From Thermoanaerobaculia bacterium (lineage in GTDB: Bacteria > Acidobacteriota > Thermoanaerobaculia > Multivoradales > Multivoraceae), in assembly GCA_963664405.1 (NCBI GenBank), contig OY761158.1, forward strand, positions 5,312,001 through 5,376,000: DNA of 64,000 nucleotides. The letters run 5' to 3'. Below are positions 20,406-26,779 of the stretch, piece by piece (positions within the stretch are counted from its first letter, which is position 1; each line of letters begins with the position of its first letter). The notes under the pieces were generated by a model, which was not told the DNA's origin, did no database searches, and was given only the letters and a program-made list of their open reading frames with translations. The position numbers and the translations under genes are program-made.

Positions 20406-23090
20406 CTACGAGCCGGCTTGCCGGGGAACCATCTCCATCACCTTGGCCCTCCAATTCTGGATATAGACCACGCGCTGACTTTCGGCCCTGGGTGCGCGGA
20501 GCATCAAGAATCGGCCGTCCGGGTGGGTGGGGTTGTAATTCGGAAACCCGGTGAAGGGATGGCGCATGTAGACGTCTTCGAACAGAGCCTCGGCCCGGCC
20601 GGGGAAGATGCTCCCGTCGACAAGCTCGATTGGAATGGCCATCACGTGAGTCGGGCCGCGATAGAAGAGCTCGCTCCCATCGTAAGAGAAGAACGGCTCC
20701 TGGCCGCCGTCGGGGGTGAGCTGCCGAGGCTCACCGGGGCCTGGGAAGGGTCGAATCCAGACGTTCGACTGCCCCAAGGACGATCGCGTGGCGTAGGTGA
20801 TCCAACTCCCGCGGGGATGGAAGCGGGCACAGTGGACGATCTCAGCTTCCACGAGCGTCTTCGACTCTCCTCGCTCTCGGTCGTAGACCCAGAGACCTGG
20901 TTGAAGGAGGTTCGTGCCAAGAACGTGTCGGCCGTCCGGAGAGAAACCGAGCCAAACCTGGGCGTGCTCTGAGGGCACCAGTCGTACTGCCGGCGCGGTG
21001 CGATCCGCGGGTTGGATGTAGATCTGGTTGAGACCCTCGAGGCGGTTCGATTGGAAGACAATCTCTCTGCCATCGGGCGGCACCCACTCGATCACAGAGT
21101 TGTTCGCCCCCTCCTGTTGCGGCAGGCTCCAAGAGCCGGTTTCGAGATCGAGGATCCACTGCTCCTGGTTGTTCGGCGGCGGCCCGACCGATACCGCAAG
21201 CTGTCGCTGGTCGAGAGAGAGGGAGGGTACAGTGAAAGCTCTCAGATCCGGGCTGACCGCTTCGACATCCCGTCCGTCCCGGCTCACCCAGACCAGCTGC
21301 GCGTCGTTGCTCTCGTGGCCGAAAACGTAAATCAGGTCGCCCGAGAGGGAGAGCGCGAAGTTGCCGACGTCGGCTCCGGATGCGGGGAGCCTTGCCACTC
21401 CGGTCTCGATTTGAACAACCGGCCCGCGAAGCTCTCCGGCCGTCGGCTCAAAGGCCGCCGCCCACAGGCTCCTATCCCGGTAGAAGACCAGATAGCCTGG
21501 ATCGAGGTAGCGCGGCCCCTGTCCGGCGACGACAACCCGCTCCTCCCCAGTCTCGACGTTGACCGCGAGCACGTCCATCCAGAAGCCGTCTCGCTGCTCT
21601 TTGGGCGCCTGGGTCAGTACGATGATCTCACCCGGCAACATAGCCCAGGCCGAGCCATGACCGAGCCGTTCCGGCTCTCCTCCTTCTGCTGGAACACGCC
21701 AGAGCTGGGCCGCTTCCTTGCTCTGGTGCATGCCCGGAAGGGGTGGAGAGTAGTAGAGAAAGCCGTCACGGCCCCAGAGTGACCCTTCTCCAATGGCCTC
21801 TATCCGTGTGACCGGGCTGCCTCCGGTTAGGGGAAGGAAGCGCAGGGTAGATTCTTCGTCGACGAAGGCAAGCTGCTGACCATCGGGAGAGAAGTTGGCC
21901 CACAGGGCTCCTTCGCTGCCAGGGATGGGGGTCGTCTCGAGGGAGTCGAGAGTTCGACGATTGAGGCCGGTGGACGTACCCTCGCCAGGTCCGAAGACGA
22001 GGGTCTTTCCGTTTGGAGAGAGCGAGAATCCGTGATTGGGTATCGGCACGTTGAGCTCGGTAACGGTCCAGGATTCTTTTGTGGCGACAGGGGTAACAGC
22101 CGCGTCTCTCCGGCCGCCGATGACCAGACCCGTCCCGAGAGCAATCAGTATCGCCAGCCCAGCCGCACCGAGAACGACGGCGGACGGCGCCTTCCTTACT
22201 GTGGTCCGCGGACGATCCGTCTCCTGGCCTCCAGGCTCCCCCGCGAGTGACTCGAGCTCGATGGCGACATCCCTGGCAGACTGCCAGCGCCGATCCGGGT
22301 CCTTGGCAAGACAACGGCTCACGACCCAGTCGAGGCGGGGCTGTGCGACCGGCAGAGCTTCGTTCAGTGGGCGAGGCTCCGAAGCCATGATGGCGGTGAT
22401 CAGACTCGCCTGGCTCTCTCCCCGAAACGGCCGCTCGCCGGTGACCATCTCGTAGATCACACAGCCTAGGGCCCAGATGTCGGTGCGACCGTCGGCTTCT
22501 TTGCCCTCCAGCTGCTCGGGGGCCATATAGAGAGGAGTGCCTATGATCGAGTCTTGGCCGGTGATCGGCTTGAGCAGGGTGGGGGAACGGGTGTCGGCGG
22601 GCAGCGGCTGCGCATCGATGCTCTTCGCCAGCCCGAAGTCGAGCACCTTCACTCCGGTCTTGGTGAGCATCACATTGCCGGGCTTCAGGTCTCGATGCAC
22701 CACGCCAGCCCGATGAGCAGTATCGATGGCCTCGCCGATCTGAGCGCCGATCGCCAGCACCTGGTCTATGGGTAGAGCTCCCCGCTCGATGCGCTTCTCC
22801 AGGGTCTCGCCTTCGAGGAGCTCCATGACCAGAAAGTCGACCTCCAGCTCGGAGCCGACGTCGAAGAGAGTGCAGATGTTGGGGTGCTGGAGCTGGGAGA
22901 TGGTCTTGGCTTCGCGCTCCAGACGCTGACGGAGCTCGCTGTCTTGACTGAGGCGTTCGGGAAGGACCTTGATGGCGACTTCTCGACCTAGTCGCGTATC
23001 CTTGGCGCGATAGACCTCGCCCATCCCCCCGGCGCCGAGGCTCGAGAGCACCTCGTAGTTGCCGAGACGTGTGCCTGTGTCCAGCGCCAT
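20406..23090 (-). CDS. Ser/Thr protein kinase with TM helix and TolB-like beta-propeller
   Basis: GAGGMGEV, VAIK, HRDLKPGN, DFG and APE motifs; SPDG repeats. Confidence 0.95.
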   Translation of the reverse strand: MALDTGTRLGNYEVLSSLGAGGMGEVYRAKDTRLGREVAIKVLPERLSQDSELRQRLEREAKTISQLQHPNICTLFDVGSELEVDFLVMELLEGETLEKRIERGALPIDQVLAIGAQIGEAIDTAHRAGVVHRDLKPGNVMLTKTGVKVLDFGLAKSIDAQPLPADTRSPTLLKPITGQDSIIGTPLYMAPEQLEGKEADGRTDIWALGCVIYEMVTGERPFRGESQASLITAIMASEPRPLNEALPVAQPRLDWVVSRCLAKDPDRRWQSARDVAIELESLAGEPGGQETDRPRTTVRKAPSAVVLGAAGLAILIALGTGLVIGGRRDAAVTPVATKESWTVTELNVPIPNHGFSLSPNGKTLVFGPGEGTSTGLNRRTLDSLETTPIPGSEGALWANFSPDGQQLAFVDEESTLRFLPLTGGSPVTRIEAIGEGSLWGRDGFLYYSPPLPGMHQSKEAAQLWRVPAEGGEPERLGHGSAWAMLPGEIIVLTQAPKEQRDGFWMDVLAVNVETGEERVVVAGQGPRYLDPGYLVFYRDRSLWAAAFEPTAGELRGPVVQIETGVARLPASGADVGNFALSLSGDLIYVFGHESNDAQLVWVSRDGRDVEAVSPDLRAFTVPSLSLDQRQLAVSVGPPPNNQEQWILDLETGSWSLPQQEGANNSVIEWVPPDGREIVFQSNRLEGLNQIYIQPADRTAPAVRLVPSEHAQVWLGFSPDGRHVLGTNLLQPGLWVYDRERGESKTLVEAEIVHCARFHPRGSWITYATRSSLGQSNVWIRPFPGPGEPRQLTPDGGQEPFFSYDGSELFYRGPTHVMAIPIELVDGSIFPGRAEALFEDVYMRHPFTGFPNYNPTHPDGRFLMLRAPRAESQRVVYIQNWRAKVMEMVPRQAGS

Positions 23091-23104
23091 TGAAGCGTCT
23101 GCTC

Positions 23105-24511
23105 CTAAGTAACTTCCTCTGTCTGTAGCGAGCCGCGATCGAGCGGCAGAAGGGAGAAGCCGAGACGTTTAGCGTTGCGTTTGAGGTTCTTGAGGACACG
23201 TTTTCGATACTCGGTCTCGTAGTAGTCCTGTGACTTCGCAGCGTACTCGGTTCCGTATCGGAGCATCGAGTAGATGATGCGTGCGAGCTTGTGAGCGGTT
23301 GCGGTGATGGCCTCCGGTCTTCCGATCTGACCCTTCTTGCGACGGAGAAAGGCGCCGAGAGAGCTGTGCGAGTTATGCAGGCCATTCGCGGCGAATCGCA
23401 GGGCGGAGGCAGCCCGATTCGCCGAGGCTTTCGAGCGACTACTCAGCTGCTTGCCGCCGGTGATCTTGCTCCCGGGACAGAGCCCGAGCCACGACGCGAA
23501 ATGCTTCGAGTTGGGCCATCGAGTCATGTCGAGTCCGATCTCACCGATGACTTTCAGTGCCGTGTGCGCCTGAATTCCCTCGATCGCTGTGAGGTCGACC
23601 CCTGTCATGCGGAACAGATGAGAGCGCGCATCGAAGCCCAACCCGGTCCGGGTCTGCTTCTCCTTGGCCTTCTTCGGTGGGGTTTGTCCGCCCGATTGGT
23701 CTTCGAAACCTTCGAGGTAGGTCTCGATCTTCTGGTCGCACTCGCCGACTTTCTGGTGGTAGATATCGAAAAGCTCCACCGCCTGCCGGAGCTCGAAGAG
23801 ATGTTCTTCACGCCAATGACCTTCCAGCGCCTTGGCGATCGTCGCCTCGCTGTTCTTGCATCGACCATCTCGCATCTGGGCCAATCGTTTTGGATCCTGC
23901 TCACCCTCGAGAATCGCTCGGATGATCCGCATCCCGGTCGCCCCCGTGATGTCGCTGACCACATGCTGGAGTTTGATGTTCATCTGGGTCATCGCCTTTT
24001 GCATGTGTTGAATATGCTGGCCTGCGTACGAGACCAGCATCGCGCGCTGTCGCAGGTAGCTGCGCAGAACACAGATTTGATCGTCCGGCCGAAACGCTCC
24101 CCCCAACAGCCCAAAGGTGTGCAGCTGCTGAAGCCATTGGCAATCCAGCACGTCGCTCTTGCGACCAGGAACCTGGCGAAGACGATGAGGGTCGACCAAC
24201 TTCACCTCGAAACCCCGCTCCTCGAGCACCTCCATCAATGGAATCCAGTACACACCCGTCGACTCCATCACCACCGTGTCGATCCCACACGCCAGAAGAT
24301 GCTCGGCCAGCGAGTACAGATCCGCCGTGAACGCTCCGAACTTCCGAACCGGCTGCGAATCCCGGTCTTCGGGCACCGCCACCCAATGCTCCGTCGCTCC
24401 GATATCGATCCCGGCAGCATTCAGGTTGACCTGCTCAAGGCTTGCCGGCAGCTGGGATCGACGGCGCTTCGAATCACCCGCCGACCGACGACGCTCTTTC
24501 TTCCGAGACAT
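23105..24511 (-). CDS. IS110 family transposase/recombinase (DEDD)
   Basis: GIDIG, MESTGVYW, KSDVLD, FASWLGLCP and AITATAHKLA motifs; GGAGGA RBS before ATG 24511. Confidence 0.96.
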   Translation of the reverse strand: MSRKKERRRSAGDSKRRRSQLPASLEQVNLNAAGIDIGATEHWVAVPEDRDSQPVRKFGAFTADLYSLAEHLLACGIDTVVMESTGVYWIPLMEVLEERGFEVKLVDPHRLRQVPGRKSDVLDCQWLQQLHTFGLLGGAFRPDDQICVLRSYLRQRAMLVSYAGQHIQHMQKAMTQMNIKLQHVVSDITGATGMRIIRAILEGEQDPKRLAQMRDGRCKNSEATIAKALEGHWREEHLFELRQAVELFDIYHQKVGECDQKIETYLEGFEDQSGGQTPPKKAKEKQTRTGLGFDARSHLFRMTGVDLTAIEGIQAHTALKVIGEIGLDMTRWPNSKHFASWLGLCPGSKITGGKQLSSRSKASANRAASALRFAANGLHNSHSSLGAFLRRKKGQIGRPEAITATAHKLARIIYSMLRYGTEYAAKSQDYYETEYRKRVLKNLKRNAKRLGFSLLPLDRGSLQTEEVT

Positions 24512-24559
24512 ACATCCTCCTCTTGTGCGCAAACCGCACAGGAGTGGGAGCCGCACACT

Positions 24560-24720
24560 CTGGCACTCTCCTAAACGGGATCACGATCTCTCGTGTCGCC
24601 ACTGTCTTCTACGCAACGCTCCCAGGACCACGCTAGCTAACGGGCACGAAGCACCAATGCTCTTCCGGCCTTCTTCTCCCCGTGCGGTGCCAACAGAGTA
24701 TCCTGACTGCGCACCGTTAC
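24560..24720 (-). ncRNA. Putative IS110 bridge-type RNA (5' stem-loop plus two internal loops)
   Basis: Minus strand: CGGTGC..GCACCG stem; loop 1 TGG-TGCTTCGTG-CCCG-TTAGCTAGCGT; loop 2 TGG-..CACGA-GAGA-TCGTG..-CCCG-TTTAGGAG. Ends are approximate. Confidence 0.6.
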
Positions 24721-25223
24721 TTCCCGTCTCCAAGTCGTCCCGACGTACCTACGCTAGCTACTGAACATCCGAGGTTTTTTGAACAGGCGGGGCAGGGGCG
24801 CCCGCCGCCGAGGAGCACGATTGCGAGGAAGATGAGCAGGTAGAGGAAAGCCATTTCGGGGCTGCCGATCTTGTCCAGCGCCTCACTGGGTGTGCTCGAC
24901 AGACCGATGAAGGAGAGTACGTGATCGATCAAGTGCTTCTTGACAAAGGCGGCGACAAACATGGTGACGGCGCAGAGGGCGGCGACGATCCGCGGCCAGA
25001 CGCCCAGGGCGAGGAGGATGCCGCCGACAAACTCGGACAAGGCGGCGGCCCAGCTGAACAAGCCTGGCATCGGAAACCCCAGGTCTCCAATGCCATCGAC
25101 AAAGCGCTGTCCTTCACCGCTGGTCAGCATCACGATCTTGTCGAGGCCATGACCGAAGGCGATGCCGAAGCCCGAGAGTCGGAGAATAAGGAGGGCGATA
25201 TTTCGTGTCAGCTCGCCGTTCAT
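24717..25223 (-). CDS. DoxX family membrane protein; atypical C-terminus running into the IS
   Basis: RL..G..HG..K, EFVGG..LG motifs. The usual G.G.(Y)SLD tail is missing and the stop lies inside the IS left end. Confidence 0.85.
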   Translation of the reverse strand: MNGELTRNIALLILRLSGFGIAFGHGLDKIVMLTSGEGQRFVDGIGDLGFPMPGLFSWAAALSEFVGGILLALGVWPRIVAALCAVTMFVAAFVKKHLIDHVLSFIGLSSTPSEALDKIGSPEMAFLYLLIFLAIVLLGGGRPCPACSKNLGCSVASVGTSGRLGDGK

Positions 25224-26779
25224 GCTTCGATCCTCCGCTTACTGGCTTCTATCTCTACTAGAGGTTGCGCCAAATCCAGCCACTGACTGAGGGCAGGTCG
25301 AGTCGCGCGGGGGTCGAGGAGATCGTGAACTGAAAACGACTCCGCCCGCGGGAAGGGGCTTCGCCCTTTGGCCATGTTCTCTTCGAGCTCGCGGCGCTTC
25401 GCCTCCGGGTCTGGAGCCGCGGCGATCTCCCGACGGAAAGCGACTGCGACGCCTCCTTCGATCGGCAACGCTCCGCTCTCGGCAGAGGGCCATGCGAAGA
25501 CGTGCCCCTGGTTCCCGAAGTGCGCGGCGGCGGCCACTCCGTAGGCTTTGCGGATGTGCACACTCGCCCATGGCACGGTGGACTCGACGGTCGCAACGAT
25601 GGCTTCAACGCCGTAGCGAATGGTGCCGGCCGCTTCCGACGCCGAACCGATCATGAAGCCGGGCTCGTCGACGAAGCTCAGGATCGGCAGGTGAAAAGTC
25701 TGGCAGAGGTTGATGAAGCGGCGCACCTTCTGGCAGCCTTCCGCGCCCATCGCTCCGCCCAGAAACTTTGGGTCGTTGGCGAATATGCCGACTGTGTAGC
25801 CGTTGAGGCGCGCGAGACCGGTGATCTGCGAGCGTCCATACATCGGACTGATCTCGAAGAAGGAGTCGAGGTCGACAACCAAGGAGAGCAGTCGTCGCAT
25901 GTCGTAGAGACGCCGCCGGTCGCGAGGAACGATGCCGAGGAGCTCCTCCTCGCGGCGATCCGCTCCGTCGCCGCTCTTGGGCGTGGATCTCGGGGGTAGC
26001 TCTCCGGCTCGAGTGGGGAGGTAGGAGAGAAAACGACGTGTGACTTCGAAGACGTCGTCTTCATCTTCGGCGAGGTAGTCGACGACTCCGCTGCGGGTGT
26101 GGACCTCCGGACCGCCGAGCTCTTCTTTGGTTTTCTTCTCTCCGAGGGCGCGCTCGACCAGAGCCGGCCCGCCAATGAGCACCTGGGAGGTCTTGCGAGT
26201 CATGATCGCTAAATGAGAGGCGGCCAGTCGTGCCGCCGGTAGGCCGGCGACCGCCCCCATCGCCGCGGACACAACCGGTGCCGTGCGCAGGGTCCGAGCC
26301 ATCGAGGAAAATCGTGATGTCGTAAACACGGGCGAGCCGCTCATCTGCTGCCCGGAGCCTTTCGCGGCCCCGCGAACGCTTCCCCCGCCTCCTTCGAGAA
26401 ATCGAACCAGTGGGAGTCGGAAGCGCAGAGCGATGTCCTCGGCGTACACGCTCTTGCGCAGCCCTGCAGGATTCGGCGATCCACCACGTTGCGTGTAGTC
26501 CTCGCCTCCCATGACGCAGGGGCGGCCTTCGACTTTGCCGACGCCGATGATGTAGTTCGCCGGGCTGAACGAGGTCAACTTGCCGTTCTCGTCAAGCTCT
26601 CCGAAGCCGGCTTGCGGCCCTTCTTCCTGAAAAGTACCGGGATCCGCCAGACGCTCGACCCGCTCCCGGACGGTAAGCCGGCCGAGCGAATGTTGCCGCT
26701 CGACCGCCTCGGCGCCGCCAAGCTCTTGTGCCAGCTCCTTGCGCCGAGCGATCTCATCAACCTCAGGCTGCCATGTCAT
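25220..26779 (-). CDS. Acyl-CoA carboxylase carboxyltransferase subunit
   Basis: GRLTVRER, EELGG, ITGLARLNG, DEPGF and RKAYG motifs. Confidence 0.92.
   Translation of the reverse strand: MTWQPEVDEIARRKELAQELGGAEAVERQHSLGRLTVRERVERLADPGTFQEEGPQAGFGELDENGKLTSFSPANYIIGVGKVEGRPCVMGGEDYTQRGGSPNPAGLRKSVYAEDIALRFRLPLVRFLEGGGGSVRGAAKGSGQQMSGSPVFTTSRFSSMARTLRTAPVVSAAMGAVAGLPAARLAASHLAIMTRKTSQVLIGGPALVERALGEKKTKEELGGPEVHTRSGVVDYLAEDEDDVFEVTRRFLSYLPTRAGELPPRSTPKSGDGADRREEELLGIVPRDRRRLYDMRRLLSLVVDLDSFFEISPMYGRSQITGLARLNGYTVGIFANDPKFLGGAMGAEGCQKVRRFINLCQTFHLPILSFVDEPGFMIGSASEAAGTIRYGVEAIVATVESTVPWASVHIRKAYGVAAAAHFGNQGHVFAWPSAESGALPIEGGVAVAFRREIAAAPDPEAKRRELEENMAKGRSPFPRAESFSVHDLLDPRATRPALSQWLDLAQPLVEIEASKRRIEA

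Follow-up and report, generated by a model that had tools for sequence, protein, structure and literature searches.

An IS110-family insertion sequence of a Thermoanaerobaculia bacterium with a predicted two-loop bridge RNA and an AG core

Within a 64,000-nucleotide stretch of the genome of a Thermoanaerobaculia bacterium (GenBank assembly GCA_963664405.1, contig OY761158.1, positions 5,312,001 to 5,376,000; hereafter the window), the minus strand of window 23102-24755 carries an intact insertion sequence of the IS110 family, whose non-coding leader very probably encodes a bridge RNA of the usual plan, with an AG core, the target-binding loop first and the donor-binding loop second. A first-pass annotation, made from the sequence alone, had recognised an IS110-family element with a leader of about 250 nt and two structured loops whose single-stranded segments match the element's own junctions, and our analysis supports this much; it had also proposed a TAG core, a donor-like loop placed first and a distinct bridge-RNA architecture, and on these points our results lead elsewhere. 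We conclude that the element is a member of a known system and not a new architecture, that the order of its loops is canonical, and that the side on which its guides lie is truly reversed but represents a known kind of variation. Judged from its sequence, the element is genuine and probably active, with a standard two-loop bridge RNA.

The element body spans 1650 bp (23104-24753), or 1654 bp when counted from the left AG through the right AG, and contains a transposase gene of 468 codons plus stop (23105-24511, minus strand). The encoded protein matches Pfam PF01548 (DEDD_Tnp_IS110; E = 1.1e-16) and PF02371 (Transposase_20; E = 1.2e-11) in the order expected for the IS110 family, with the RuvC-like DEDD domain ahead of Tnp (Transposase_20), and scores 260.6 bits against NCBIfam NF033542 ("IS110 family RNA-guided transposase"), for which the cut-off is 140. 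The only solved structure related to it by sequence is the IS621 transposase chain 8wt6_A, a distant match with E = 5.2e-5. Residues D36, E83, D120 and D123 are invariant across five relatives in a five-sequence alignment; the alignment with IS621 has a gap where the serine nucleophile would be expected, and the K-I-[S/T]-G-G position is occupied by S or T family-wide. The element lacks terminal inverted repeats, as IS110-family members do, and the TAG stop codon of its transposase gene falls inside the donor site, ending 1 nt before the right core.

The genome, which consists of one contig of 6.78 Mb, holds three copies of the element that are 100% identical over a common block of 1659 bp (window 23102-24760), and outside this block the flanks of the three copies share nothing. 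AG is present at both junctions and all three copies are preceded by TAGCT-AG, in keeping with the short core, the lack of a longer duplication and the site-specific insertion that are traits of the IS110 family; in the window, this site is flanked by a DoxX-like gene and a Ser/Thr kinase gene. The first-pass annotation had equated the element with the common block, and while the block has exactly the extent that it assumed, it is not equal to the element, as homologues and a second repeat, here called repeat X, move both ends. Repeat X is 1.72 kb long, is present in four copies and encodes a DDE_Tnp_1 plus DUF772 transposase of 453 residues, and two of the three element copies are located at ends of X, in its terminal CTAGCTAG. 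Intact X ends read ...GAGAAC-TAGCTAG and ...GCGAT-CTAGCTAG. At one invaded end the element begins right behind ...GAGAAC-TAGCTAG, and at the other ...GCGAT-CT leads into the reversed element, which has AGCTAG on its far side. Excising the element together with one AG (CT) regenerates the 13-nt X end GCGATCTAGCTAG, as found in two intact X copies. As the intact end is regenerated only with an AG core, TAGCT at 24756-24760 is target DNA, lying within the common block and outside the element, and the core is AG. Cores at the first, second or third TAG of the left end were likewise tested against the genome and ruled out. Target bases and core are common to all copies of an IS110 element and therefore resemble part of it, which makes a mis-set boundary of this kind typical for the family.

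With these boundaries, the left core AG lies at 24754-24755 (CT on the plus strand) and the right core AG at 23102-23103, the latter placed by the copies, repeat X and homologues alike, so that the crossover AG sits 5 nt inside the left boundary of the first-pass annotation and 2 nt inside its right boundary. The element proper starts with CGTAGG... and ends with ...ACTTAGG; its right end (23104-23113) comprises TTAGG (23104-23108), which is matched by the second loop, and overlaps GTTACTT (23107-23113), one copy of a subterminal repeat described below. The left ends of homologous elements align starting at AG. Both guides, too, invariably end in AG (A122 G123 and A187 G188 of the leader alignment), and in these homologues the five nucleotides before the left AG vary with the loop-1 guide, whereas the first bases of the element stay similar. 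One homologous locus, L090, has its insertion precisely at the core on the right end of a different family member, of the L051 type. The five matched nucleotides of L090 are the right end of that other member, which puts the loop-1 match outside the inserted element. The loop-1 guide of L090 is identical to the loop-2 guide of the L051-type element (L090 and L051/L055 are from Dehalococcoidia genomes), and members of the family thus target one another's ends.

Some further observations concern repeat X and a divergent relative. The four X copies lie outside the window, at L128:239-1958 (G000:C1:2985138-2986857) and at G000:C1:406509-408231, 2971457-2973173 and 5435863-5437596. Their terminal inverted repeats are imperfect and begin with CTAGCTAG, one end of X copy b is degenerate, and two of the eight X ends host the IS110-family element. 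The 52%-identical relative found on plasmids of Klebsiella, Citrobacter and Enterobacter (L127:2200-3850, NZ_CP047272.1) has the same two-module leader as the rest of the family (see below), with loop segments that end in AA, not AG (UAAAAAAA and UUCAGGAA), and sits behind an A-run (...ATATTAAAAAA) in a reading frame resembling IS3-type orfA, which suggests a different core and a target within another insertion sequence.

Relatives of the element were collected in a homologue scan of one genome per species, which gave 80 loci with transposases 48-66% identical; the transposases of the clade are about 430-470 residues long. The hosts of these loci include Dehalococcoidia, cyanobacteria, several proteobacterial classes, Planctomycetota and others, and relatives with 52% identity are carried on plasmids of Klebsiella, Citrobacter and Enterobacter. 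The gene could be anchored in 76 of the 80 loci and the 400 nt upstream were aligned; 41 leaders entered the structure alignment, and 70 loci with extractable guides entered the guide tests. This revealed that the leader of about 250 nt upstream of the gene is conserved across the 76 loci, which represent many phyla, as two parallel modules, each consisting of (C)A-N-UGGUG, a hairpin, CCCG, six variable bases and AG, with the first module followed by C-N-UGGUY and the second by A-N-UG.

Analysis of the 41 leaders with RNAalifold yielded four helices, namely a 5' hairpin, the outer stem of loop 1 with its 5 bp (GACCG paired to UGGUC), stem-loop 1 (UGG-UGC with GCCCG) and stem-loop 2, and a duplex search added a stem closing loop 2 that occurs in the compensatory forms GGGAGC/GCUCCC, CUGGGU/ACCCAG, CCGAUUAU/AUAAUCGG and others and exceeded its own shuffles in 38 of the 41 sequences. 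Over the 30 pairs and 41 sequences, 91.4% of cells are paired, versus 74.1% in shuffles and 36-46% when partners are slid by 1-3 columns, and both-sided changes are found in 24 of the 30 pairs. The two inner hairpins singled out by the first-pass annotation, GGUGC-UUC-GUGCC and CACGA-GAGA-UCGUG, are present, closed by UGG...CCCG as it had described, and are the two most conserved helices of the family, with 99.5% and 94.9% of cells paired. In the window, the 5' stem-loop CGUC-GG-GACG (24736-24745, minus strand) corresponds to family helix 1, all three pairs of which show both-sided changes, although the helix of this sequence lies one column off in the alignment. Behind this hairpin the two loops stand in tandem, each composed of an outer stem, a 5' strand, a stem-loop, a 3' strand and the other half of the outer stem. 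At three positions a U-G or G-U pair is kept in all or nearly all sequences (41/41, 41/41 and 39/41). These pairs would be mismatches on the other strand, and thus the RNA strand is the transposase strand, as the first-pass annotation had supposed; folds of the single sequence were uninformative in this respect (z = -1.15 sense, -2.32 antisense). A scan of window 22500-25500 against Rfam matched no family at E up to 1.

The first loop, predicted to bind the target from its family structure and guide covariation, extends over 24626-24670 on the minus strand. Its outer stem pairs 24666-24670 with 24626-24630 and encloses a 5' strand (24657-24665) with the short guide AAGAG followed by C, a stem-loop (24641-24656), a long guide UAGCU-AG (24633-24639), preceded by a base, 24640, that is mismatched as a rule, and a CG dinucleotide at 24631-24632 in the position of a handshake guide. 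The first-pass annotation had proposed asking whether such segments covary with the flanks across homologues, and they do. Bases 2-8 of the loop-1 segment of each locus were searched for as an exact match in a fixed window 100-140 nt upstream, with the guides of all other loci as the control, and loci whose window ran beyond the locus end were omitted from that count. In 41 of 60 loci the left junction contained the locus's own loop-1 guide, against 13 of 4084 trials with foreign guides; the right end contained it in only 2 of 61. The 70 loci carry 54 distinct 7-mers as loop-1 guides and 22 as loop-2 guides, and this greater variety of the loop-1 guides is as expected for a target compared with a donor.

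Of the two bases that follow the loop-1 AG, the first agrees with the first base of the element in 37 of 41 loci and the second with its second base in 40 of 41. For the second, which is variable, shuffles gave 13.7 matching loci on average and 22 at most. The next base, the invariant U of the outer stem, agrees with the element in 12 of 41 loci, which is chance level. All strings quoted in the first-pass annotation were confirmed on the minus strand at their coordinates, including its match TAGCTAGCGT, which occurs in the window only at 24630-24639 and 24751-24760, where none was expected from 100 shuffles. This 10-nt match decomposes into five target bases, two core bases, two handshake bases and one base that agrees by coincidence, so that the loop taken to be donor-like holds five nucleotides of flanking target plus AG, and only CG matches the element's own end, at the known handshake position.

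The first-pass annotation had found no guides on the 5' side, but the family has a short one in loop 1. With the right boundary set by the loop-2 match, independently of the loop-1 5' strand, the three bases immediately before a conserved C of this strand pair with positions +1 to +3 of the right flank in 30, 28 and 24 of 48 distinct pairs, versus shuffle means of about 12, and these values were attained by 0, 0 and 3 of 2000 shuffles. The conserved C stands opposite the core G, and in some loci the match extends to 5-7 nt.

The second loop, predicted to bind the donor on the same grounds, occupies 24545-24624 on the minus strand, with an outer stem (24618-24624 with 24545-24551) in which all seven pairs show both-sided changes, a 5' strand (24602-24617), a stem-loop (24576-24601) and the guide UUAGG-AG (24568-24574), next to which 24575 is mismatched. 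Bases 2-8 of the loop-2 segment, again required to match exactly, were found in a fixed window around the stop codon in 49 of 61 loci, versus 25 of 3890 trials with foreign guides, and a locus's own loop-2 guide was found at its left end in 0 of 60. The corresponding string TTAGGAG (CTCCTAA on the plus strand) is present at both places that the first-pass annotation had given, 23102-23108 and 24568-24574, but taken alone is at chance level in the window (3 matches versus 3.6 expected); it is meaningful only because of the family-wide comparison of own and foreign guides. Among our analyses of the homologues, this fixed-window comparison is the only one free of boundary calls. As the first-pass annotation had noted, in both loops it is the 3' strand that bears the long guide, the side reversed relative to the published text on IS621.

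Outside the two loops, the leader carries a 7-nt motif, M (AAGTAAC, 24716-24722, minus strand; alignment columns 44-50), about 37 nt inside the element, which is complementary to GTTACTT at 23107-23113, corresponding to right-end positions -10 to -4. Of 31 usable rows, 23 show complementarity over the full seven positions, and the variable positions pair in 31, 31 and 23 of the 31, which 0 of 2000 shuffles attain. The mismatches that were seen are not of the G-U type, and the sequence therefore cannot tell a DNA repeat from an RNA guide; M could be the left copy of a 7-bp subterminal inverted repeat acting at the DNA level or an additional RNA guide. One version of the latter, which we consider unlikely, is that the clade recognises its donor only on the right-end side, through the loop-2 guide (-5 to +1) and M (-10 to -4), which would contact opposite strands with a 2-nt overlap. 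There would then be no RNA guide for the left end, M would be a third guide outside the loops, and the system would be a hybrid that joins the RNA position of the IS110 group with the strand order and subterminal repeat of the IS1111 group.

These features suggest how the element may move. The leader would encode a bridge RNA that runs from the 5' hairpin to the target-binding loop and on to the donor-binding loop. The 3' strand of the target loop, UAGCU-AG, has the same sequence as the left flank plus core and would pair with the opposite DNA strand, and the CG that follows it, being the first two bases of the element, would pair with donor DNA after strand exchange as a handshake. On the 5' strand of the target loop, the short guide ending in C would, family-wide, pair with the first three or so bases of the right flank, and in the donor loop the 3' strand UUAGG-AG, equal to the right end of the element plus core, would recognise the donor. 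Recombination would take place at AG, which is CT in the complementary strand, and its partners would be a circular form ...TTAGG-AG-CGTAGG... and a target ...TAGCT-AG-.... The circle junction is accordingly expected to read ...GTTACTTAGG-AG-CGTAGGTACG..., and not ACTTAG-CTAGCGT as predicted in the first-pass annotation. The data show the anatomy of the element, its copies and boundaries, the conservation of the RNA structure and the covariation of guides with flanks; beyond this, we infer that the RNA is produced, that it binds the transposase and that the reaction follows this chemistry.

Several results weigh against this reading or soften the support for it. The three right flanks of the element in this genome (CAGAC, TCTCG and ATCGC) do not fit its short 5' guide, AAGAG-C, so that the three insertions match the 7-nt guide only, and at 100 other places in the genome TAGCTAG stands without an insertion. 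On the donor side, no guide for the left end (the right-donor guide) was found in the 16 nt before stem-loop 2 at registers -4 to +4, and across the whole leader 6-mers complementary to AG plus the first ten element bases never matched their own locus above foreign loci in any bin, in searches that could miss guides under 6 nt or discontiguous ones. There is also no signal for a handshake in loop 2, where the bases after AG agree with the right flank in 13 and 15 of 47 cases, which is chance level. An empty site for the insertion in the window was not found among 40 relatives, none of which is a same-genus genome, and in that search the N-terminus of the kinase matched paralogues only. No contig joins across the element in four public sequencing runs (X1, X3, X4 and X7), and a scan of 23000-24900, with the integrated copy, for sigma-70-like promoters and for terminators returned none of either. 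Lastly, in the analyses of homologue boundaries, of the 5' guide, of the right ends and of motif M the boundaries were themselves set by guide matches, and the shuffle controls ignore the relatedness of the loci and overstate their independence.

Other accounts of the same sequence have to be weighed against an AG core with the target loop first. A core of TAG or TA within TAGC-TAG-GAG, with TAGCTAGGAG as the target and GAG as three conserved bases of right target, is suggested by the three occurrences of TAGCTAGGAG in the genome, of which two coincide with intact ends of X, and by the same GGAG that follows all three copies. Such a core would leave X copy a with the end GCGAT-CTC-CTAGCTA, whereas copies c and d have GCGAT-CTAGCTAG; moreover, the base after the loop-2 AG is unlinked to the right flank family-wide (the chance-level 13/47 and 15/47 given above), and the right ends of homologues stop at AG. 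We consider this core very improbable. Even less probable in our estimate is an action of the repeats at the DNA level, in which the end sequences repeated inside the element would be transposase-binding sites or remnants of nested insertions and no guide RNA would be involved. The 7-bp repeat formed by M and GTTACTT reads equally well as an inverted repeat in DNA, but the guides lie in single-stranded parts of a structure supported by compensatory changes in 24 of its 30 pairs, the invariant G-U pairs exist only in the sense-strand RNA, and the guides vary along with the flanks over 54 different targets. The protein, furthermore, belongs to a family experimentally shown to use such RNAs (NF033542; PMC11208160, PMC11187229).

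The layout of the first-pass annotation, in which TAGCTAGCGT and ACT form the two ends of the element, the core is TAG, loop 1 binds the donor (ACTTAG-CTAGCGT), loop 2 binds the target or right junction and the loops are thus opposite to those of IS621, has in its favour that the loop-1 match of 10-11 nt crosses the left edge of the common block into the element and that TAG stands at both ends of this block. It predicts X ends of GAGAAC-TAG-GAG and GCGAT-CTCCTA, whereas the intact ends are GAGAAC-TAGCTA(G) and GCGAT-CTAGCTAG. In homologues, it is the five nucleotides before the left AG that change with the loop-1 guide and the first bases of the element that remain similar, and the signal beyond AG is confined to two of the three bases, the third being the stem U. 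A donor loop in first position is also countered by the near absence of own loop-1 guides at right ends (2/61) and the complete absence of own loop-2 guides at left ends (0/60). We therefore regard this layout as the least probable of the alternatives, with hardly any chance of being correct.

The setting of the insertion in the window yielded additional observations. The DoxX-like open reading frame as called (24717-25223, minus strand) extends 39 nt into the insertion sequence, and contigs of the four sequencing runs have four extra bases, CGTA, after window 24797, in the 3' part of this reading frame, which would change its frame. On the other side, the right end of the element places AGGAG (23102-23106) 11 nt before the start codon of the Ser/Thr kinase gene (20406-23090, minus strand; ATG at 23090), and the insertion may thus supply or replace the ribosome-binding site of this gene. 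The first 90 or so nucleotides of the kinase gene (window 23000-23090) have at least nine paralogues in the genome with 74-84% identity, several of which are clustered, for example at G000:C1:21-32 kb, 753-770 kb and 4.99-5.00 Mb.

In runs X3 and X4 the element was assembled as a separate piece of 1659 bp (23102-24760), and in run X7 the piece has 24 additional letters past 24760. The unitig of the element (23102-24760) is 4-10 times deeper than the flanking contigs in runs X3, X4 and X7 (27.4 versus 5-7 in X3 and 25.5 versus 2-5 in X4), which exceeds the expectation for three copies; extra copies, circles or effects of assembly are possible sources of this excess. The joints listed in the run contigs are short-sided matches to other organisms or to paralogues, and the run contigs are neutral on expression and excision.

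The value of these results is modest but concrete, as the clade is well sampled, with 76 loci aligned, and its guide plan is clearly readable. For the target there are an uninterrupted guide of 5+2 nt, followed by the 2-nt handshake, and a second guide that is short; for the donor there is one uninterrupted guide of 5+2 nt; and a covarying 7-bp subterminal repeat completes the plan. Such a guide map is a prerequisite for reprogramming an orthologue, and it raises the testable question of how the left-end side of the donor is recognised in this clade and what role motif M has.

Among published systems, the resemblance of the element to the IS110 and IS1111 groups was judged feature by feature. 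According to Siddiquee et al. (2024), seekRNAs of the IS1111 type and those of the IS110 type carry their top- and bottom-strand matches in opposite order, and a few IS1111 members have an upstream non-coding region (PMC11187229). The element agrees with the seekRNAs of the IS1111 group (ISEc11, ISPa11 and ISKpn4) in that, from 5' to 3', the complement of the top (transposase-sense) strand comes before that of the bottom strand (PMC11187229). The subterminal inverted repeats of this group, which are 7-17 bp long, may have a counterpart in the covarying 7-bp repeat seen here, the left copy of which is about 37 nt inside the element. Unlike in the IS1111 group, where the RNA is usually encoded downstream, it would be encoded here in the 250-nt leader upstream of the transposase gene.

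With two copies placed in the terminal CTAGCTAG of repeat X, the element resembles an IS110-family element, known to us by its title only, that lands in the terminal repeat of another transposon, although the host transposon and the target sequence differ and the third copy lies outside such a repeat. We found no description of the layout of this clade in the text of the bridge RNA and seekRNA literature, a search that covered main text and not figures and supplements, where layouts are likely to be placed, and we do not claim that it is unpublished. A 2026 survey with a genomic language model presents 86 bridge-RNA covariance models, with many variants that deviate from IS621 and covary with target and donor (bioRxiv 10.64898/2026.10.21.760802), and the clade may well be among them.

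The closest parallels are with IS621. As in elements of the IS621/ISEc21 type, the RNA would be encoded in a long non-coding left end, upstream of a DEDD-plus-Tnp transposase, and as in IS621 (PMC11208158) a 5' hairpin is followed by the target loop and then the donor loop, each made of stem, guide, stem-loop, guide and stem. In IS621, the 5' strand of one loop has the transposase-sense sequence of the left target with the core and that of the other loop the transposase-sense sequence of the right end with the core (PMC11208160), the 3' strand is complementary to the core plus right target or to the core plus left end, and the core is CT (PMC11208160, PMC11208158). In the present element too both target guides include the core, which is CT/AG, and a 2-nt handshake that matches donor DNA lies 3' of the AG-ending target guide; in IS621 the handshake stands directly 3' of this guide and pairs with donor DNA after strand exchange (PMC11208158). 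The element differs from IS621 in its protein, which is only distantly related to 8wt6_A and has 468 residues versus 328, and in that the left flank and right end are matched by the 3' strands of the loops and not, as in IS621 (PMC11208160), by the 5' strands. Its AG-ending guides are long (5+2 nt) and its C-ending target guide short (about 3+1 nt), a second donor guide and a donor-loop handshake were not detected, and its subterminal repeat is 7 bp long as opposed to 2-3 bp. When the element is read on the CT-carrying strand, however, the succession of stem, short C-ending guide, stem-loop, long AG-ending guide, handshake and stem is the plan of IS621, and the reversed order that had suggested a distinct architecture has been published for the IS1111 seekRNAs (PMC11187229). 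As all parts fit the IS621 scheme on the other DNA strand, the simplest view is that of one and the same RNA-DNA complex, and we infer that the element uses the complex of IS621 with the 14-bp site turned round relative to the transposase gene.

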